In this document: positions 17,739 to 27,340 of the stretch, in pieces
Layout of the letters: each line of letters starts with the position of its first letter
How positions within the stretch are numbered: position 1 is the first letter of the stretch
Source: Escherichia coli
Lineage (GTDB): Bacteria; Pseudomonadota; Gammaproteobacteria; Enterobacterales; Enterobacteriaceae
NCBI RefSeq assembly: GCF_009931435.1
Contig: NZ_CP043414.1
Strand: one strand, 5' to 3'
Length of the DNA: 64,000 nucleotides
The notes under the pieces: model-generated
Told to the model about the DNA's origin: nothing
The model's input: the letters and a program-made list of their open reading frames with translations, nothing else
Database searches by the model: none
Program-made: the position numbers and the translations under genes

Positions 17739-18233
17739 TTAGTTTTGCTGTTCTATTCTAAGCTTGATAGTTTCATACAAAACAATAGTTGCGCCTGTTT
17801 TACATAATTCCCGGCTGTCATACGCGCGAGACCAATAACACAACCAGTTCTCGAGATCTTCTCGAGTATAGGTTTTGCAGGCCAGTCCCTCTGCCATTTC
17901 CACGATTTCATCGCCTGGTGCTGTTAACTCATAGCCATTCAACAACAAGAAGACGTAACCAGCCATCATAGCTGTTCGTTTGTTCGCATTAGCAAACGGA
18001 TGATTCTGAATCAGACTTTCAATCAATACCGATGCCAGTACAAACATGTCATTAGTCTGTTCATACCATCGAACCATGCTGGGACGGGCCTGAGAAGAAC
18101 TTAAGTTATCTGGACTCAGAACACCAACGGGCTCATCTGGCGTCTGTAATTCAATTAGGGAACGATTGATTTCAACAAGATCATCAACCGTAAGGTAATG
18201 CACTCCTTCAACAATCTCAGCCATAGAGCACAA
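17739..18233 (-). CDS. doc: Doc/Fic-family toxin (death-on-curing-like)
   Basis: Motif HPFANANKRTA matches the Fic/Doc signature HxFx(D/N)(A/G)NKR. Confidence 0.8.
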   Translation of the reverse strand: MCSMAEIVEGVHYLTVDDLVEINRSLIELQTPDEPVGVLSPDNLSSSQARPSMVRWYEQTNDMFVLASVLIESLIQNHPFANANKRTAMMAGYVFLLLNGYELTAPGDEIVEMAEGLACKTYTREDLENWLCYWSRAYDSRELCKTGATIVLYETIKLRIEQQN

Positions 18234-18242
18234 TACCCATCA

Positions 18243-18470
18243 TTACACTTTTGAAAGTTCTTCCATGGCTTTCTCATAACGAGAAAAACCGAAATCAAAA
18301 GCATTTTTCACTTGTTCACGATGTGCGCAGTTTTCATCAATCGCTGGGCGAGGGACTGCCACAACGCTTTTATCGCGAGGCGGAATACTCAACCGCGTGT
18401 GTTTTTTGAGTGGGCAGCTCATACTAATGAGTCCTTTTGTTTTCCGATTATTGGCAAAGCCATGCACCAA
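18243..18470 (-). CDS. Putative antitoxin for Doc (not obviously Phd-like); start uncertain
   Basis: Small ORF immediately upstream of doc with a 9-nt gap; typical antitoxin-toxin gene order. Confidence 0.45.
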   Translation of the reverse strand: MVHGFANNRKTKGLISMSCPLKKHTRLSIPPRDKSVVAVPRPAIDENCAHREQVKNAFDFGFSRYEKAMEELSKV

Positions 18471-18547
18471 ATTTGATGCAAAATAGATCTGTTTGAGATC
18501 CTTAGGATAGTCTAATGGTAGCTAAAATTACAACCTCATAATGCGAC

Positions 18548-18569
18548 GAAAAACCCGCCGAAGCGGGTT
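18548..18569 (-). terminator. Rho-independent terminator after hok (same stem-loop as 17703-17724)
   Basis: AAAACCCGCCGAAGCGGGTT, followed by a T-run on the minus strand. Confidence 0.55.
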
Positions 18570-18637
18570 AAGTGCGGGTGCGTTGAGGATGCCTGACACA
18601 TCAGAGGTGGCGAGGGATTTCTCCCCCGCCAGGTCTC

Positions 18638-18793
18638 TTACTCCTCAGGTTCGTAAGCTGTGAAGACAGCGACCTCCGTCTGGCCGGTTCGGATTCGTAC
18701 CTCGCAGAGGTCTTTCCTCGTTACCAGTGCCGTCACAATGACGGTTAAACAGATGACGATCAGGGCGATTAACATCGCCTTTTGCTGCTTCAT
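18638..18793 (-). CDS. hok: Hok/Gef-family type I toxin (HokD/RelF-like, 51 aa)
   Basis: MKQQKAMLIALIVICLTVIVTALVTRKDLCEVRIRTGQTEVAVFTAYEPEE matches recalled HokD/RelF; the ORF track extends the frame upstream. The sok antisense RNA is expected around 18.8-18.95 kb but is not mapped. Confidence 0.85.
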   Translation of the reverse strand: MKQQKAMLIALIVICLTVIVTALVTRKDLCEVRIRTGQTEVAVFTAYEPEE

Positions 18794-19640
18794 AGCCTGC
18801 TTCTCCTTGCCTTTCGGCACGTAAGAGGCTAACCTAGATTTGCCGTTCATAGATTGAGCCTCAGATTAATGTTAAGCGTCTTGCAGGACGCGTAATGTTA
18901 ACTGGGGCTTTTCTATATCTGCCTTTGGTGTTCATGCCTGAGACAGATAGCCTCAAGCACCCGCAGCCATTGTACTTAACTCCCGTTACCTCGCCAATAT
19001 AAAATCAATCAGAAAGGCGATCCATAAGGACAATAGCAAGACAATAAATTGCCATTACCCGCAATAGCCAGCGCACATTTGAGGACCAGCACGACAACTT
19101 TCTGTATCGGACGTACACCAGTCCTGATAAATACAAGGCGGTCTCATCAGTGATGAAATGCAACTATTGAGTACAGTTTCTCTGATTTTTCTGTAAAACA
19201 TGGAACACAACAACTAAATATAACTAGCACTTCTTAAGATGTACAAATTCAGAGTTAAGATAACGTAAGCAGTTTTCTCAAAACTAAGTGTAAATTTTTA
19301 ATGAAGAGCAGTGCTATGCTCCTGATCATATATTCATTGTTTGGAACTGGAGGAATATTTAGGTTGCTGGAGTGGTTGATTGAATTTAAATCAACTAAGA
19401 CAAAAACCAACAATTAAAGATATGTGGTATATCAGAAAACAACTATCCGTATATTACTACAGAATTAAATACTAGCAACAAAGCTGTCTTTATTGATTTT
19501 TTATCTGATATCGAAATAAATAAACATAAAATAACCAACTAATTAAAACAGAGACTCGACAATGAGCCTCTATCTATTGTAACAGCACTTCCAAATTTAT
19601 TTTAGTAAGATAATAGCATGGGGCATACTAGCCCCATCTT

Positions 19641-21143
19641 TTAAACCGTTTCATCAAGGAAATACTTAGACGAATCATCCTGTTTCGGTTGATATGTTTT
19701 TTTTGCAGAATTAAGAACTCTTCTTAGTTCTTTTCTTAACTCAGGTAAACGCTCCTGAAGAGGGTTAGAACACCATTGTGAAGGCAACCCTCTTATAATA
19801 GCTTCGGAACAAAGCGGTGAAATAAGTTTTTCCATTTGATAATAGAAAGTTTTTGCTCGACTTACACGCATTGTGATCCTTTTTATTACATCTCTTTCAG
19901 ACTCAATTCTAGCACTCAGATCTCTTAATCTACTCCATACCTTAGCATCAGCAATATATGTATCATAAAGCATACACTCTATAAACGTGAAATTACTAAT
20001 AAGTTCTTTTGCAATATACCCCCCCAGCCGAGAAGGAATGAAACTTGATGAAGCTGTTGGATCTCCGTGATTTACGGTGAACAAAAACCTTTTATTGCAT
20101 AAATCAACGAGAACTCGATGCGTGAAAGAGTCACCTATACCAATTAACCTTAACTTTTCAGTTATTACCGAACCATCGATTTGTCTGAATCCGGGATCGC
20201 TTGCATACGAAACGATAACATTAAGAATGTACAGCCTCAATAATTGCATTTGTGTCACAGCTAAATTCGAATCAAACGGGTTCGCAATAGTCGACGTTGA
20301 CTCGCTATAAGTCAACTCAGTACCCAGTAATATAGCTCTAAATGCCTCATGACGTGGAAGAAGATATCTTCCTTGTTCTCTGAAAATTTGTACTGCTTTA
20401 CCTGGACTCGTATACCCTCTTTCTAAGAACTCACGAGTCATACGTAATGCTAATCGAACATCATCCGTAGCAAGAACTTCAATACGTGTTCCAATCTCAC
20501 TTCCCAGCACAGACCCACTAATAATATCGACTAATTGTGATATATCATCCAATACAACTTTAGCGCCATTTTCTGCAATAAAATTTCCACTTTTATTACT
20601 TGTCATATACTTTACTAGTGCAAAGCGTTTTGCAATCACACTACTTATTCTCGGTGGATCTATTTGTATAACTTCAAAATCGAAAGCATCTATAGCAGGT
20701 GAGTTTTTATGTTTGATAAATGTAGACTGCCTCAATGAAAGTACTAAATTTAATGAAAGCGCTCTGGAAATTGAAAATGACTCGGTAAATATCCGGGACT
20801 GGATATCATCAAACTCGATCTGATCAACGTTATCAATAACAAGAAAAAAAGATGTCTCTTTTGTAACACGACTTATTATTTTATCAACATAAGGTTTTAT
20901 CTTTTTATATTGTTCATATAAAAAATCCGAGATTCTGGTATTTTTTTGATCCTCACTCAATAAAAAAAGAGGTCCTGATTTTATCGCCTCAATATCTTCT
21001 CGAAATGCATCAAATACAAAATCCTTATTACTCAAAACAGGATGCTTATTGATATATTCCAGAATTGATTTATAAATAAAATCGACTATTGAACTTTCTG
21101 ATGGATTATCTAGAAAGTCTATATGAACCCAATGCGGCGTCAA
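19641..21143 (-). CDS. 3' ORF of split nuclease-NTPase gene: Walker B-like FFLVIDNVD plus ~400-aa C-terminal region; track start is TTG and the frame is open further upstream
   Basis: Same strand as, and overlapping frame with, the upstream ORF across an A8 tract; hhhhDxxD motif ~100 aa into the ORF; AT-rich. Confidence 0.6.
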   Translation of the reverse strand: MTPHWVHIDFLDNPSESSIVDFIYKSILEYINKHPVLSNKDFVFDAFREDIEAIKSGPLFLLSEDQKNTRISDFLYEQYKKIKPYVDKIISRVTKETSFFLVIDNVDQIEFDDIQSRIFTESFSISRALSLNLVLSLRQSTFIKHKNSPAIDAFDFEVIQIDPPRISSVIAKRFALVKYMTSNKSGNFIAENGAKVVLDDISQLVDIISGSVLGSEIGTRIEVLATDDVRLALRMTREFLERGYTSPGKAVQIFREQGRYLLPRHEAFRAILLGTELTYSESTSTIANPFDSNLAVTQMQLLRLYILNVIVSYASDPGFRQIDGSVITEKLRLIGIGDSFTHRVLVDLCNKRFLFTVNHGDPTASSSFIPSRLGGYIAKELISNFTFIECMLYDTYIADAKVWSRLRDLSARIESERDVIKRITMRVSRAKTFYYQMEKLISPLCSEAIIRGLPSQWCSNPLQERLPELRKELRRVLNSAKKTYQPKQDDSSKYFLDETV

Positions 21144-21147
21144 GATA

Positions 21148-22146
21148 TCACATTGATTTGAAAAAAAACTCTTTTATTCTAACCTTTCTCATGTAATGAA
21201 GAAATGTTGTTTTACCTGCACCTACAGTCCCAAGTAACAAGATCGCGAGAGGTTTGTCATTCCTGACTTTTATTTTTTTCTTCCCTTTAACCTGAAACTT
21301 ATCAACTATTCTTTTTGTATCTTTATCATTAAGCCCTTTTAGTACTTCACCATTCAGCACACTTGAACGCCTACCTATATTCATTCTAATTTTACTATCG
21401 AATCTCATAGTTTCTGGTGTTGAAACATAACATTTATCAAAGGAGTCTTCATCCAAGTAAAGTATAGAATCAGAAAAAGCCAACCTTAATTCATCAGCAA
21501 TCAAATGATATATTGGATTATTTGTCTGTGTTCTGTTTTGTTGCGAATAAAAATTTCTTAATTTTCTAAATTCTATTTGATTTTCGACGCGACCTAAAAG
21601 TGCTGTTTCTAGACTTCCTGATATAACATTTTCACGACTAAGTAAATCATAGAATTCTTGATAATTATCATTTAAGCAATCTTCTAACGACCAGAACACA
21701 AGCGCTATTGAATCATTAAATTTGACATTGTCATGCCTCTGAGCTGCAAAACATGCCCATACATTTCCATTCGTAGCGACAGCATAATCTATACCAAATT
21801 TCCTGGCGTAATCTCTAGCTTGTATTATCGCTTCACCAAGATCACTTTGTAAAAAACTATTACTTAGCTTTATTTTTCTTTTTCCTGGAATTGTACTAAA
21901 GCTTGGCCCTGCCTTTTTAGCTTCAACAACAAGAGCAATATTAGCTGTTTTTAGTATATAATCAGCATAAGTTGTCAAACCATCTTCAGTCACATGCTCT
22001 TCTGGTTTTATATCACTATCAGTCCACATCAAGACTTCCTTTAATACCCGATCTATCACTTTTAGTCTTGTGGCTGCTTCATTTGCATTTTCTAATTGTA
22101 AATGATGATAAGCTGATAATATTTCCGAAATAAATGTTTTCTCCAT
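21148..22146 (-). CDS. 5' ORF of split nuclease-NTPase gene: N-terminal PD-(D/E)xK (HsdR-N/Mrr-like) nuclease domain plus Walker A P-loop
   Basis: N-terminus ANEAATRLKVIDRVL...YADYILKT...ALVVEAKK...QARDYA...YAVATNG (restriction-endonuclease-like fold); C-terminus LAILLLGTVGAGKTTFLHYM (GxxGxGKT), then a stop 22 codons later inside the homopolymer. Confidence 0.65.
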   Translation of the reverse strand: MEKTFISEILSAYHHLQLENANEAATRLKVIDRVLKEVLMWTDSDIKPEEHVTEDGLTTYADYILKTANIALVVEAKKAGPSFSTIPGKRKIKLSNSFLQSDLGEAIIQARDYARKFGIDYAVATNGNVWACFAAQRHDNVKFNDSIALVFWSLEDCLNDNYQEFYDLLSRENVISGSLETALLGRVENQIEFRKLRNFYSQQNRTQTNNPIYHLIADELRLAFSDSILYLDEDSFDKCYVSTPETMRFDSKIRMNIGRRSSVLNGEVLKGLNDKDTKRIVDKFQVKGKKKIKVRNDKPLAILLLGTVGAGKTTFLHYMRKVRIKEFFFKSM

Positions 22147-22856
22147 AGATTATTCTCTCTATAAAAAATAACGAAAATTTTTCTGATTAGTTTTACCGCA
22201 TTTAGTTACAATAACCTAGCTATGTCAAGTCTGATGTTATCCTAAATTTCATTTTTGTTATATTATCCTCTAATTCTTAAGGCACACGTTTGAAAAGCGT
22301 CGACTTTCTCCTGTATGCTCTGAAGGTATCATTTACTCTGATTTTTCACGCAGTGTGCCGGATAGTTTTCTGTCAGGATAGAGCCCTAGATGACACGGAT
22401 GACCGCTGATGACCTGAATATGATCATGTCGCTAACATTCGCCATGGGTAATATTATTAGCCAATCCCGCCCCATCTGTTCATTCTGCTCCTGAATGCCC
22501 CCCCCCCGAAGTCAGCAGACTATGGCCTCGTTGCTGACATGCTCAGAGCCAACTCCTTACCCCCTTACGTAGAAGCAATCTCAGGCACCATTAGTGATTA
22601 CGGTAACCGAGCAGTTGTATTACACCGAACCGACTACCGCTATCATCAACACCTATCTTTGGGGCATAAAAGCGTGGCATAAAGGAAGCAACTAGGCAGT
22701 GATTATGTAAGTACATCTGTAAAACGGACCATCCATTTTAAATATCCTCTGATCCCCCTCAATATCCACCTCTAGCACAAAGCGGACAACCACGCTAGCT
22801 CTCCCCTGTACCATGAAAATTTCAATTCACATATGTATTAATGCTCTTTAGTCTCT

Positions 22857-23279
22857 TCACTTCAATAAATACTGAGAATCCCCCTGATAAAACGACAATA
22901 TGCGCTGCATAACTTCGCTTTTACGGCACTCACTACAAATTATATTATGATGCCTGTCGTAGCGACGTATTTCTCCATCAGGTAATGACCAGATAAGGTC
23001 CGGATCAACCGCAGATGGTTTCTTCAGCTTTGCCCTTGAGAGCTTTTTACGGGCATTTTGCCAGTCCTTACGCGCCTGTTCAGACGGGAATAACCCGTAA
23101 CCAGAGTTGTATACATCGCCACTGGCAACCAGCTCTCTGGCCAGAACGCTCATCAGATATCTTGTTGCCCCAGTTTTAGCTTCCAGTTGTCGTAACGTCT
23201 CTCGCCCGCTCTGGCGTACGAGATCAACAATCTGCCCTTTAATTTTTTCCCGCTCTTCCTGTGTAAATACTTTTGCCAT
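22857..23279 (-). CDS. Hypothetical protein (nin-region)
   Basis: ORF with start set at internal Met (MAKVFTQEE...); unrecognised. Confidence 0.35.
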   Translation of the reverse strand: MAKVFTQEEREKIKGQIVDLVRQSGRETLRQLEAKTGATRYLMSVLARELVASGDVYNSGYGLFPSEQARKDWQNARKKLSRAKLKKPSAVDPDLIWSLPDGEIRRYDRHHNIICSECRKSEVMQRILSFYQGDSQYLLK

Positions 23280-23295
23280 AAGCCCTCCCCTGGAA

Positions 23296-24114
23296 TCACT
23301 TTTCCGACACAATACGACTGGAGGAATCGACAATCTGTCGGACAATATCCCGGTGCTTGTTCAGCTCCCGCAGCGCGGCGCAGACTCGCTCCCACTTCTG
23401 GACATGACTTTTCGCCCGGCGAAGTTCGCGGCTTGCCATATGCAGCGATGGTAAAATCAGGCCATTCGCTCGCGTTTCGGTGAACGATGGCAACGACTGC
23501 ACAATGTCCCCCACAGTATCTGTTTTAATTTCTTCCTGTGTTGCCGCTTCCTGTACTGGTAACGCAACACCGGCTGACTGAGAAAAGGCTTTACCAGGTG
23601 TTTTCGCTACCGATACAACTTTCGGCTCTGCTGGTAAATTTTCCCCGGTTTCTTTTACCAGCATCCACTTACACCCCTTCCCCTGTCCCAGCTTAATCGC
23701 CATGCCATCGCGGCAAAGCTTTTCCATCGCAGAAACCAGCGACCTGACGCAATCAGCACGCCCCACAGCAATTGCAATCTCAGCGGTGGTCATTGCCCCA
23801 CTATGAGCAAGTGTGGACAGGATTTCGCAGCGTTTCAGTGGCTCACGCTCTTTTCTACTGACCACCGGATGGGATTTTCTTTCCACTTTACACACCGTTA
23901 CTTTTTTTTCTTTCACGCCCGTTTGTCGTTCTGAAACAGACCAGTAACCATTAACCGACACAACTTCTCCCAGCTCTTCGTACTCCCTCAGCATTTTAAT
24001 CGCCTCTGCAGGTTCAATGCCCAAACTGGCAGCAAGCTCGGTGCACGTCACCTTTTGCATCGCTTTTAACGTATCAATCAACGTTTCCATCAAAATTTCT
24101 CCCGTTAAAATCAT
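23296..24114 (-). CDS. Hypothetical early protein in the P/helicase-loader position (no Walker A; winged-helix-like repeats)
   Basis: 272-aa ORF downstream of the replication-initiator-like gene; no P-loop seen, so not DnaC-like. Confidence 0.35.
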   Translation of the reverse strand: MILTGEILMETLIDTLKAMQKVTCTELAASLGIEPAEAIKMLREYEELGEVVSVNGYWSVSERQTGVKEKKVTVCKVERKSHPVVSRKEREPLKRCEILSTLAHSGAMTTAEIAIAVGRADCVRSLVSAMEKLCRDGMAIKLGQGKGCKWMLVKETGENLPAEPKVVSVAKTPGKAFSQSAGVALPVQEAATQEEIKTDTVGDIVQSLPSFTETRANGLILPSLHMASRELRRAKSHVQKWERVCAALRELNKHRDIVRQIVDSSSRIVSEK

Positions 24115-24134
24115 TTACCAATCTCAAACCAAAC

Positions 24135-25097
24135 TTATCCCCTGAACCCTGGCGGAATTTCGGTGTCCGGTTCAGAAATATGATTCACACAACGCTGTAC
24201 AGGCGAACGCCCCAGACGGATAACCAGCTCATCCCATTTATCGCGAAGTTTTGACGGACTCATGATGTTTTTTACCCAGAATGGATCCCGCTGTACCCGA
24301 CCAAACATTTCGCAGATTTGTCTGTGAGTTCTGCCATCCAGCATCCGCATTATGCGCACGTCATTGGCCCATGCTGTCCAGTTGGGTTCTTTCGGTCGGG
24401 TGATCTCGCCATCATCGCTGGCGGCCTGTTCGTAAAGACTCACGATTCGCCCCCAGATCCACTGTGCGCATGCCAAATCCTCCTGATTTCCCCACTGACG
24501 TTTTTTTGCACTAAACACAATCGCATCAGGATGTCGGGTTAAAAAGTCCTGTTCAGCCGTCTGCGGGTCCGGTTGCGAAGCTTCCGGACGAAAAGATCTT
24601 TTATCTGACGGATCAGGTTTTAATACTGACGGATCGGGGCCAACCATCGCCCCCCTAACCGGCTGTTTTTTACAAACGGTTGATCCATCAAAATTTGACG
24701 GGTCAATCGTTGAGGGGGCAATATTTGACTGGTCAACTGTTAACGGGTCATTTTTTGCCGGGCTAATTTTTCTTTTCGGTTTATATGCCTCACGCGCCGC
24801 CTCAGCTGCTGCTTCGAGTTTTTCCACATTAAGGCGGTAGATATTGCTTTCATTACGCCCACCGACCTTACGCTCCTCCTTCGTCAGCCAGCCGTTCTTT
24901 TCCAGTTCCGCTATCGCCGCTTTAACCGTTGATTCACTCTTTGCCCCAATCTGACGACGAATGGTCTCCACTGCAGGCCATGACACACCTTCGTCATTGC
25001 TGTAGTCTGCAAGGCGAGCCATTACTGCCACCCTGGATAAGATCATGCCGGTGAAGGCGCACCCTTCCCAGACAAGACCATGAAGCTTGCTGCTCAT
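24135..25097 (-). CDS. Putative replication initiation protein (O-like position, N-terminal HTH/winged-helix)
   Basis: 320 aa; N-terminal ...LADYSNDEGVSWPAVETIRRQIGAKSESTVKAAIAELEKNGWL... resembles replisome-organiser HTH domains; position after the cro/cII-like genes. Confidence 0.5.
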   Translation of the reverse strand: MSSKLHGLVWEGCAFTGMILSRVAVMARLADYSNDEGVSWPAVETIRRQIGAKSESTVKAAIAELEKNGWLTKEERKVGGRNESNIYRLNVEKLEAAAEAAREAYKPKRKISPAKNDPLTVDQSNIAPSTIDPSNFDGSTVCKKQPVRGAMVGPDPSVLKPDPSDKRSFRPEASQPDPQTAEQDFLTRHPDAIVFSAKKRQWGNQEDLACAQWIWGRIVSLYEQAASDDGEITRPKEPNWTAWANDVRIMRMLDGRTHRQICEMFGRVQRDPFWVKNIMSPSKLRDKWDELVIRLGRSPVQRCVNHISEPDTEIPPGFRG

Positions 25098-25120
25098 AAA
25101 AAACCCCGAACACCGTGCTT

Positions 25121-25546
25121 TTAGTGCATCACCACAGCATTTCCTGCCGGGCCACCACGATTCATCTGATTGAAACCGGCGATTGCCACTGCGACAAAAT
25201 CATCAGCGTCTCTCACCAGTCGTTCCCGCGTCTCCACCAACTCCCGAAAATAGACTGAACTGTGGCTGCGCATCCGGGCCACCAGCAGAGGTGGCATTGC
25301 TTTTTCGATCGCTGGTAACAACGCCTGAATTTTTTCAACCGCATCAGTAGTGTCTTTCTCCACCCAGCGGAAAATTTTCTGGGTATTACGAGCCAGGGCT
25401 TCTGGATGGCTGTCGTCGTACAGTTCCGGGGACGTCATTCCCAGTTCGAAATAAGCCCTGGTTATCTTGGCCGCCGGAACTTTTTCACCATCCGGACGCG
25501 CCCAAGCATTCATAGCCATGCGGATGTGTTCATGCTTGATTTTCAT
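25121..25546 (-). CDS. ydaT: YdaT-like protein (Rac-type, CII-position)
   Basis: 141 aa starting MKIKHEHI..., as recalled for Rac YdaT; follows the cro-like gene. Confidence 0.55.
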   Translation of the reverse strand: MKIKHEHIRMAMNAWARPDGEKVPAAKITRAYFELGMTSPELYDDSHPEALARNTQKIFRWVEKDTTDAVEKIQALLPAIEKAMPPLLVARMRSHSSVYFRELVETRERLVRDADDFVAVAIAGFNQMNRGGPAGNAVVMH

Positions 25547-25770
25547 GAATCATTCTTTCCTTCGTTCAAGGTGTTATCCTTCTTTTTGTAAAGTTCTGGG
25601 TTCAAAGATAATTTTCCCTTGGAGTATGCGGCAGCTTCCGCGGCCCTCCCCTTGGGAACTATTTCACCAGGACGTTTGCGCCACATGTATATAGCTTCAC
25701 GGGTTATCCCATAAAAATCGGCAACTCTCTGAACAGAGCCAAAAAACTGGACAAGTTCATCAACTCGCAT
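25543..25770 (-). CDS. Cro/YdaS-like HTH regulator
   Basis: 75-aa ORF divergent from the CI-like repressor across an operator-containing spacer. Confidence 0.6.
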   Translation of the reverse strand: MRVDELVQFFGSVQRVADFYGITREAIYMWRKRPGEIVPKGRAAEAAAYSKGKLSLNPELYKKKDNTLNEGKNDS

Positions 25771-25779
25771 TTCACCCTC

Positions 25780-25830
25780 CTAAAACTAAGTATTTTTAGA
25801 TTAAAGGATAATTTTTTTTAGGTCAATGCA
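25780..25830. promoter_or_regulatory. Right operator/promoter region between cro-like and cI-like genes (palindromes built on CTAAAA/TTTTAG)
   Basis: CTAAAACTAAGTATTTTTAG and TTTTAGgtcaatgcaatCTAAAA in a 92-bp divergent intergenic spacer. Confidence 0.5.
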
Positions 25831-25862
25831 ATCTAAAATAATTTATATTCAATTCACGGGAG

Positions 25863-26513
25863 ATGATGATGGAAAGCCTTGGCATTAGGCTTAAGAGACT
25901 CAGAAAAGACAAGGGACTGACCCAAGTCGAACTGGGCAAGCTTTCTGGCGTAACAGGGGTAACTATAGGGTACTGGGAGAAAGACCTAAACGAACCCGGT
26001 AGCAAAGCTCTTAGTAAATTAGCCCAAGCACTAGGAACTACTGAGTCCTATCTCCTATATGGAGTATCGTCTACTGAACCTACCCTTGTGCAGAACAATT
26101 CAGGCACCCAAATCCCCTATCTTTCATGGGGGGAAGCAATTTCTTTCCTAATTTTAGAAGGAGAGAAAACTATGGGAAATGCCGACAGAATCACCACATT
26201 CTTTGACGTCAAGGAGGGGGATTTTGCCGTTTCAATGCCTGATGACACTATGCACAACCCATCAGGGTCGCCAAGCATTCCGGTTGGTGCCACAGTGATC
26301 ATGAGGCCTAGAGAAAAATATAAAAATGGTAGTATCGTCGCTGTAATAGTCCCAGATCCGCTTACAAACGAACCATCTATGACTATAAAAAAATTAGTCA
26401 TCGACGGAAAACTCGTGTATTTAAGCCCCCTCAATCCTCGCTATCAATCGTCCTTACTGACACCTGAATGTAAAATTGTTGCTGTAGCAAAAGGTGTGCA
26501 GTTCAGCCTATAG
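25863..26513 (+). CDS. cI: CI-like repressor (N-terminal HTH plus C-terminal S24 LexA-like autopeptidase domain)
   Basis: 216 aa; LTQVELGKLSGVTGVTIGYWEK (HTH) and C-terminal VIMRP...GSIVAVIV...KKLVIDGKLVYLSPLNP; divergent from the cro-like gene. Confidence 0.85.
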   Translation: MMMESLGIRLKRLRKDKGLTQVELGKLSGVTGVTIGYWEKDLNEPGSKALSKLAQALGTTESYLLYGVSSTEPTLVQNNSGTQIPYLSWGEAISFLILEGEKTMGNADRITTFFDVKEGDFAVSMPDDTMHNPSGSPSIPVGATVIMRPREKYKNGSIVAVIVPDPLTNEPSMTIKKLVIDGKLVYLSPLNPRYQSSLLTPECKIVAVAKGVQFSL

Positions 26514-26536
26514 CTTCCACTTTGTTTTTCAATCAG

Positions 26537-26560
26537 AGGTCGGCTTTGTCGACCTTTTTT
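26537..26560 (+). terminator. Rho-independent terminator after cI-like gene (aggtcg...cgacct plus T6)
   Basis: Inverted repeat followed by TTTTTT. Confidence 0.55.
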
Positions 26561-26577
26561 AAATATATCTAGATCAC

Positions 26578-26611
26578 ACTTGACTATAAAACTAAATAGA
26601 TTTAGTTTTAT
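26578..26611 (+). promoter_or_regulatory. Putative left operator/promoter (pL/oL-like): -35 TTGACT overlapping the palindrome ATAAAACTAAAT-AG-ATTTAGTTTTAT
   Basis: 12-bp perfect inverted arms sharing the TAAAACTAA half-site with the right operator. Confidence 0.5.
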
Positions 26612-26786
26612 GGTATACCACCTCACCCCGCCCCACAGAACGCAGGGCAATACTTCGAGTTACCAGGCAGTGGTCAGGGGTTAAGTAGCCAGCCCGAGGC
26701 GTAAGAACATGACGGCAGGGTTCAACTTTAACTATGCAGCAGGTTTTTGTTCCGCTCCCCCGGCGTTAAGGGGAAATGAGGTCAAC

Positions 26787-26939
26787 ATGGATACTATCGA
26801 TCTTGGCAACAGTGAATCTCTGGTATGCGGCGTGTTTCCCAACCAGGACGGTACGTTCACCGCGATAACGTATACCAAAAGCAAAACGTTTAAAACCGAA
26901 ACTGGCGCGCATCGCTGGTTAGCCAGAAACACTGACTGA
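26787..26939 (+). CDS. Small early-left protein (hypothetical)
   Basis: ATG preceded by GAGG RBS (MDTIDLGNSESLV...); first ORF after the putative pL. Confidence 0.3.
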   Translation: MDTIDLGNSESLVCGVFPNQDGTFTAITYTKSKTFKTETGAHRWLARNTD

Positions 26940-26950
26940 TGAGGTTGACT

Positions 26951-27340
26951 ATGGAATTTAAAGAGTTACCAAAAGAAATCCAAGAAATTGCAGCACATAC
27001 ACTTCGTCAACGTCTGAACGAAGTTGCATTAGAAGCTGAAACGAAAAAAGACATTGATAATATGGCTCGTAATGTGCGCGATGCGTTTACCGGACTGTAT
27101 TCTGTTTCTGTTGAGGACAATAACATTCCTGACGAACAGGAAGAGAGTACAGACCCCCACAAATTCTGGAAATCTGTAGAGGTCATTGCAAAAGCCAAAC
27201 TACTGGAACTTAACAACTTATATCATCGTGAGAATGATGGTCGTCAATCTTTGCATCATCAGGGAGTCGCCACCCTGATAGCTCTAACGAAAGAGCAAGG
27301 CGAATATCATCCAGTGGCATTAAACGACACTGTGAAATAG
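26951..27340 (+). CDS. Hypothetical early-left protein
   Basis: 130-aa acidic ORF; unrecognised. Overlapped by a minus-strand ORF (27210-27587) that I consider less likely. Confidence 0.35.
   Translation: MEFKELPKEIQEIAAHTLRQRLNEVALEAETKKDIDNMARNVRDAFTGLYSVSVEDNNIPDEQEESTDPHKFWKSVEVIAKAKLLELNNLYHRENDGRQSLHHQGVATLIALTKEQGEYHPVALNDTVK

Follow-up and report, generated by a model that had tools for sequence, protein, structure and literature searches.

Organization of the segment

The window, which is the whole 64-kb stretch of Escherichia coli DNA that was analyzed here, contains an ORF-free segment at 22147-22856. It is bounded by the start of a minus-strand gene at 22146 (21148..22146) and by the stop of a DUF977 gene at 22857, also on the minus strand. 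RefSeq has no annotation within this segment in the seven genomes that carry it. The features that were identified in and around it are listed in Table 1.

Table 1. Features in and around the segment at 22147-22856 of the window
Feature	Position	Strand	Basis
Variable cargo of the prophage hotspot, from the DUF977 gene to hokD/sok	19236..22761		flanking backbone arms
Candidate defence gene	19641..22146	-	HsdR_N-like nuclease domain and P-loop NTPase; 834 aa in relatives
AT-rich 5' spacer of the defence gene, presumed promoter site	22147..22268	-	GC 26%; similarity to the L010 spacer
Decayed copy of a conserved 34-bp palindromic block	22269..22303	+	comparison with 8 intact recombinase loci
Promoter-like site and recombinase 5' leader	22290..22389	+	promoter scan; blastn matches on plasmids
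XerC-type tyrosine recombinase pseudogene remnant	22390..22689	+	tblastn; collinear nucleotide alignment
C10 homopolymer	22498..22507	+	alignment to C6 of intact recombinase genes
72-bp junction, source unmatched	22690..22761		no match to plasmid loci or other prophages
Prophage backbone directly 3' of the DUF977 gene	22762..22856	-	common to about 876 further E. coli genomes

The initial annotation had reported no ORF of 60 aa or more in the segment and an AT-rich proximal part. Both were borne out. The longest ORF that begins with a start codon encodes 47 aa (22539..22682, plus strand). Read from stop to stop, the longest open frame has 73 aa, as against 77 ± 19 aa in dinucleotide shuffles, and the segment thus resembles non-coding DNA. 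The GC content is 26% in the first 138 bp (22147-22284), 50% in 22390-22689, and 37% in 22690-22761. It had been proposed that the AT-rich part is a promoter. This is plausible and the spacer is conserved with a plasmid locus, being 65-88% identical to the equivalent spacer of plasmid L010, although the minus strand shows no strong sigma-70 match. No site above the scan threshold was found on the minus strand of 22147-22268, so we infer the promoter function of the spacer for the defence gene.

The candidate defence gene

An intact coding sequence of 2505 bp (834 aa, WP_001349602.1) is present in six E. coli genomes. In the window, the gene consists of two ORFs of 332 and 500 aa, which are separated by a frameshift from A7 to A8 at 21161-21168. 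This frameshift was seen in the window only, and the run is A7 in all 13 of the other copies in which it could be read. The copies that were sequenced in full all have the 834-aa ORF intact, except for one IS1 insertion. This insertion splits the gene in strain H7 (L003), and IS903B knocks the gene out in two Serratia plasmids. It therefore seems that the gene has been inactivated repeatedly.

Domain matches of the protein are weak. They include Pfam AAA_16, NACHT, and HSDR_N_2, as well as KAP, and the PADLOC match to mREase_II reaches only 2.9e-4. Neither PADLOC nor NCBIfam gave a usable classification of the 834-aa protein. Its homologues number in the hundreds (a set that includes P0001-P0120), with 45-63% identity in Aeromonas, Cupriavidus, Pseudomonas, Thauera, Vibrio, and others. 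The neighbours of the gene in related loci include a CAP12-PCTIR TIR gene (L010-L012) and SIR2 with DUF87 (L014 and L015), which is consistent with a role in defence. Directly after the stop of the defence gene lies a GC-rich hairpin, AGATGGGGCTAGTATGCCCCAT, at 19618-19640. It is conserved with the plasmid loci, whose homology stops at 19618, and is probably the terminator of the gene.

A remnant of a recombinase gene

In a sensitive blastn search, 22286-22432 matched 487 plasmid records at about 76% identity (Klebsiella, Enterobacter, and Escherichia plasmids). The match spans about 100 bp of upstream DNA and the first 43 nt of annotated genes for 330-aa tyrosine recombinases. With tblastn, aa 1-108 of the recombinase align in the plus-strand frame that starts from the ATG at 22390. 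Examples are PRSQQTMAS in the remnant opposite PRSRQTMAS in the recombinase, and VITVTEQL...AIINTYL opposite VMAVTELL...ATVNTYL. Nucleotide homology is collinear up to 22689, which corresponds to nt 341 of the 990-nt recombinase gene. The part beyond the BLAST block (22502-22689 against gene nt 140-341) gave a local score of 51, as compared to 19.6 ± 2.1 for 500 dinucleotide shuffles (z = 14.9). The reverse-complement control scored 19, which is background level.

The remnant covers aa 1-113, that is, the N-terminal extension and the SAM-like domain. In the intact recombinase, Pfam places Phage_int_SAM_1 at aa 43-112 and Phage_integrase (PF00589), the catalytic domain with the R-H-R-Y residues, at aa 145-313. 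The catalytic domain is absent from the window; homology stops at about aa 113, and tblastn over the whole window yields nothing beyond. By these alignments, 22390-22689 is what is left of a plasmid XerC-type recombinase gene, a dead fragment of its 5' third that cannot encode a recombinase. The initial annotation had offered a decayed gene remnant as one of its possibilities. This was correct, and it can now be added that the gene was that of a plasmid recombinase and not a phage gene, that it is read on the plus strand, and that it appears to have arrived with the defence gene as one plasmid piece.

The intact plasmid recombinase scores well below the NCBIfam cut-offs for XerC (145 bits against 335), XerD (128 against 330), and integron integrase (68 against 265). 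The protein is Xer-like and is neither a chromosomal XerC or XerD nor an IntI. An integron-like arrangement, with an integrase divergent from its cassettes, was also considered and was rejected, as the integron-integrase model is far below its cut-off. A distant-mode search of E. coli genomes found no closer intact recombinase, only the plasmid xerC genes at about 76% identity. The frame-repaired translation of the remnant had no match among 5.8 billion proteins in a word index that requires shared 5-mers.

Lambdoid phages carry nin-type genes downstream of their replication genes, and the location of the segment would suit a remnant of such a gene, which the initial annotation had named as the outcome that would go against its reading. 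However, 50,697 phage records searched in distant mode match only 22759-22856, the backbone end. Elsewhere the segment shows homology to plasmid DNA, on the strand opposite to that of the phage genes. A nin-region origin can be given next to no probability.

Plasmid context of the recombinase and the defence gene

Three plasmid lineages have an intact recombinase gene in divergent orientation to a defence-gene homologue, with 241-244 bp between the two. The spacing in the window is 243 bp (22147-22389). The three are an IncFII plasmid contig (L010; 93% identity of the defence protein, spacer of 244 bp), a second plasmid contig (L013; 72%, 243 bp), and a Kosakonia plasmid (L028; 71%, 241 bp). 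Positions 22412-19618 of the window are 86% identical to 4734-7527 of L010, and a more sensitive alignment extends the homology to 22689. Thus, 19618-22689 is collinear with IncF-type plasmid DNA. A closer donor was not found, the best plasmid match being the 86% in the defence gene, and for this reason we infer the direction of the transfer, and when it and the decay took place.

Other plasmids have retained the defence gene and lost the recombinase. In a Klebsiella pneumoniae plasmid that lacks xerC (L027), homology includes the spacer of the defence gene and ends at window position 22264. In L029, the defence gene is preceded at about 60 bp by an IS3 element, and homology stops at window position 22178. 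These K. pneumoniae and Enterobacter plasmids (L029 and L027) retain the defence gene with just 32-118 bp of upstream DNA, so the remainder is dispensable for the maintenance of the gene.

Decay of the remnant

In the frame from the ATG at 22390, stop codons are found at 22492-22494, 22570-22572, and 22693-22695. Against the intact gene of L010, the remnant shows 59% identity, at least five frameshifting indels, and deletions of 33 and 13 nt. The linked defence gene encodes a protein that is 93% identical to that of L010, and its 4-fold sites are 63% identical. Since the 59% of the remnant is close to this 63%, the remnant appears to have diverged at about the neutral rate.

Substitutions in the window lineage are strongly biased. 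At the positions where two intact genes agree, 62 changes from GC to AT were counted, as against 14 from AT to GC. The GC content of the remnant fell from 67% to 50%, which accounts for its backbone-like composition. The initial annotation had recorded this composition; it is seen as the 50% GC, and it is explained by GC-to-AT decay of a recombinase gene.

The same lesions are present in all 14 prophage copies that were compared, which include the window and six further copies from viral and metagenome collections. The decay is therefore older than the common ancestor of these copies, and it may have taken place outside the phage.

Leader, promoter-like site, and palindromic block

A promoter-like site, TTGAAA-18 nt-TATGCT, lies on the plus strand at 22290-22319, with 9 of 12 matches in the promoter scan. 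The region from 22285 to 22389 is about 74-78% identical to the plasmid leaders, as compared to 59% for the coding remnant at 22390-22689. The higher identity may reflect a lower exposure of this AT-richer DNA to GC-to-AT decay, or it may reflect residual constraint. Twelve of the 54 leader positions that are invariant among the intact loci are changed in the window.

The most conserved element of the leader is a 34-bp block, TCTACTTATTAAAATGTACCTTTGAAAAAGTAGA. It consists of TCTACTTATTAAAA-TGTACC-TTTGAAAAAGTAGA and forms a 14-6-14 imperfect palindrome, whose arms agree at 12 of 14 positions. In the intact loci, the block lies about 95-128 bp upstream of the recombinase ATG and overlaps the -35 element. 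It is invariant or nearly so in eight intact loci (L008-L010, L013, L028, and L030-L032), which encode recombinases that are 69-93% identical. The palindrome is a candidate recombination site or operator. In the window copy, nine invariant positions are altered. The flanks of the plasmids diverge at the left edge of the block, and the homology of L027 with the window is lost at 22264.

It was considered that the recombinase promoter and leader, or the whole upstream region, could function as a cis-regulatory region for the defence gene or for the early operon of the phage. A possible route would be an antisense transcript that starts near 22326 and opposes read-through of the early operon. The promoter-like site is retained, and its -10 element (TATGCT) is nearer to the consensus than that of the plasmids (TACGCT). 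The leader is better preserved than the coding remnant, and no terminator-like site was found on either strand within 22147-22856. However, the 34-bp block, the very element that is most conserved among intact loci, is the one with the nine altered positions. The gap in identity between leader and remnant is expected from GC-biased decay, and the L029 and L027 plasmids keep the defence gene with so little upstream DNA. Such regulation is unlikely.

The initial annotation had drawn attention to an inverted repeat and had suggested a structured non-coding RNA or a regulatory leader. The repeat exists one base away from where it had been placed (GGCACAC at 22281-22287 and GTGTGCC at 22353-22359). 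It is present at chance frequency, since two perfect 7-nt inverted repeats within 100 nt were seen and 4.6 ± 2.7 were expected. The GGCACAC arm sits inside the 34-bp block, is specific to the window lineage, and is a product of the changes in the block. No conservation of the outer arms was found in related loci. A structured non-coding RNA in the 50%-GC part (22285-22760) would agree with an ORF-free stretch that has local inverted repeats. However, an Rfam 15 scan of 18000-27000 had no match in 22147-22856 even at E <= 1, and the folding z-scores against shuffles were -0.04 for the minus strand and +0.84 for the plus strand. The 7-nt repeats are neither more frequent than chance nor conserved, and the sequence is fully explained as decayed coding sequence. 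As material for base-pair covariation, the 14 prophage copies offer five SNP sites, and the homologues on plasmids are coding. A structured RNA is thus highly improbable here, and the same results leave the regulatory leader without support.

The C10 tract

The run of ten C that the initial annotation had placed at about 22498-22507, and had called unusual, lies at exactly this position. It is the only G/C run of at least nine in the 64-kb window, and about 0.09 runs of ten or more are expected from the base composition of the window. In the intact genes of L010, L008, and L009, the tract aligns to TCCCCCCG, a C6 run within the codons AAC/AAT TCC CCC CGC (Asn-Ser-Pro-Arg). Its counterpart in L013 is TCGCCCCG, with C4.

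The length of the tract varies among the 14 prophage copies. There are three copies with C7, eight with C8, and one each with C9, C10 (the window), and C11. Outside the tract, the copies are more than 99% identical, with no more than five SNP sites in the remaining 700 bp. Two SNPs are common to the three C7 copies; tract length thus follows haplotype, and at least that difference is inherited and not an assembly error. Some of the other differences in length could be assembly errors in the other genomes. With five length alleles, the description of the tract as slippage-prone stands.

For the window itself, sequencing errors were assessed on the core chromosome, because prophages are mosaic, as was seen in a comparison with CH4793, which has the closest prophage copy. 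Over 24 kb of core chromosome (36000-60000), the alignment to a genome of 98.8% identity shows no indel. Hence the assembly is not prone to indels, and the C10 and A8 runs are probably real. Over this same region, from yccU to ssuE, identity is at most 98.8% to any of 5426 complete E. coli genomes. The lineage of the host is thus poorly represented among complete genomes.

The tract lies 352 bp upstream of the defence-gene start codon, and neither of the two promoter-like sites includes it. It has the variable length of a phase-variable locus, and it lies neither in the 5' part of an intact gene nor in a promoter spacing. In all likelihood the C10 run is a neutral, slippage-prone expansion of the C6 in the Ser-Pro-Arg codons, within a dead gene. 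The initial annotation had also considered it notable that a second such tract lies beside the gene interrupted at A8. For a tract in a dead gene, at this distance from the start codon, the nearness needs no functional explanation.

A phase-variable small protein was also considered. ORF modelling for each tract length shows that C8 or C11 opens an ORF of 61-62 aa (MPPPKSADYG...) at an ATG before the tract, and that C7, C9, and C10 do not. C8 is the commonest allele. However, this ORF is pieced together from stretches of recombinase sequence that are partly in frame and partly out of frame. There is no Shine-Dalgarno sequence before its ATG (CTCCTGA-ATG), the ATG overlaps a TGA that has arisen within the decayed frame, and RefSeq annotates no such gene in the seven genomes. 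The existence of the protein carries a very slight probability. It is improbable as well, though slightly less so, that the retained xerC promoter drives an antisense RNA into the 3' end of the DUF977 gene and dampens read-through, with the C tract altering this transcript or the 61-62-aa ORF. If this were true, there would be heritable variation between strains in the expression of the defence gene.

The prophage hotspot

The full 710 bp were found in seven of 5426 complete E. coli genomes, with more than 99% identity and always with the 2505-bp gene. For the last approximately 90 bp (22762-22856), about 876 further E. coli genomes and four phage records have matches of 83-86% identity. The backbone arms are common to Rac/Qin-like prophages. 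In a comparison with three such prophages, they end at 19235 and resume at 22762-22765. No match was found among the compared plasmid loci and prophages for 22690-22761 or for the left flank of the cargo at 19236-19617 (382 bp, 29% GC). The 72 bp at 22690-22761 form the junction at which the truncated remnant of the recombinase gene meets the phage backbone.

The initial annotation had suggested a comparison with other prophages to see if they have an intact gene at this position. The slot between the DUF977 gene and hokD instead holds other cargo (L016-L018), which is either SMODS and SLATT with a recombinase pseudogene or NUDIX and HAD hydrolases. The pseudogene annotated as a recombinase in this hotspot (L016 and L018) was tried as a relative and is unrelated to the recombinase of the window by tblastn.

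Two RNA matches were seen near the left end of the hotspot, both on the minus strand. A full-length match to the sok antitoxin RNA lies beside hokD at 18788-18962 (105 bits, E 1e-23). A sub-threshold isrK-like match is present at 18548-18629 (26 bits, E 0.017), with a terminator hairpin at its end.

Proposed origin of the segment

The ORF-free segment is a composite without a dedicated function, and it is an ordinary, unannotated gene fossil. It very probably consists of a hitchhiking, decayed fragment of an xerC-type gene, the spacer of the defence gene, and phage backbone, with the C tract as a neutral leftover. A Rac/Qin-like lambdoid prophage would have captured a 3.1-kb piece of an IncF-type plasmid at its hotspot, which lies between hokD and the DUF977 gene. 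With this piece would have come the defence candidate, the 243-bp spacer, and, from the divergent XerC-type recombinase gene, the first 341 nt with their promoter and leader. Homology and synteny are observed, as are the lesions, the bias in substitutions, and the length polymorphism of the tract; the transfer would have run from plasmid to phage, and the neutrality of the decay and the promoter assignments are likewise putative.

The recombinase fragment, without its catalytic domain, would then have drifted neutrally and gained frameshifts, deletions, stops, and GC-to-AT changes. Without selection on its frame, replication slippage could have stretched the C6 run, which is now C7 to C11 between strains. 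Expression of the defence gene most likely has two sources, a promoter of its own in the adjacent AT-rich 120 bp and, during induction, read-through from the phage early operon. The remnant would be no more than a spacer in the read-through transcript. Two features that one might take for regulatory signals are thus explained by the fossil, and no function needs to be invoked for them. One is the resemblance of the composition to backbone DNA, and the other is a poly-C tract of a length that is rare in E. coli.

Comparison with known systems

Homopolymeric contingency tracts underlie phase variation in Neisseria, Haemophilus, and Campylobacter. The C10 tract resembles them in being a poly-C run of at least seven whose length differs between near-identical copies. 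Unlike them, it is neither in the 5' end of an intact ORF nor between -35 and -10 elements, and no ON/OFF coupling was seen.

Xer core sites of the dif/cer type have 11-bp arms that flank a central region of 6-8 bp. The 34-bp block is comparable as an imperfect palindrome (14-6-14, 12/14, with TGTACC at its centre) that lies upstream of intact xerC and at whose edge the plasmid flanks diverge. It differs in that the window copy is degenerate, with nine changes, and the junctions of the prophage are not at the block. It is a putative site only.

The name xerC has been given to a XerC-type tyrosine recombinase gene beside mcr-10 on IncF-type plasmids of Enterobacteriaceae (Wang et al., 2020, PMC7067168). 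The recombinase of L010 is 90.5% identical in amino acids to the xerC product beside mcr-10.1 in pEC81-mcr10. On plasmids, the defence gene thus adjoins the same XerC-type recombinase that accompanies mcr-10. The window shares with the mcr-10-linked gene a promoter and leader of about 76% nucleotide identity and collinear coding homology over nt 1-341. It differs in having only the first third of the gene, with at least five frameshifts, two deletions, and stops, and in being located in a prophage and not on a plasmid. The recombination site of the mcr-10-associated xerC was not identified (PMC7067168). The dif-like palindrome of 34 bp is a testable candidate for this missing site, and it may matter more to plasmid biologists than the fossil itself.

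Temperate phages possess hotspots for moron and defence cargo, such as those of P2 and P4 (Rousset et al., 2022, PMC9122126). The hotspot described here is similar in that conserved backbone arms surround interchangeable cargo. What sets it apart is its location, in lambdoid prophages of the Rac/Qin-like type between hokD and the DUF977 gene, and its cargo, which appears to retain a fragment of a former plasmid neighbour that reveals the context of the donor. The fossil can thus serve as a modest marker of provenance, and it shows that a single-gene defence candidate has moved, in a single block of DNA, between a locus on IncF-type plasmids and a hotspot of lambdoid prophages.
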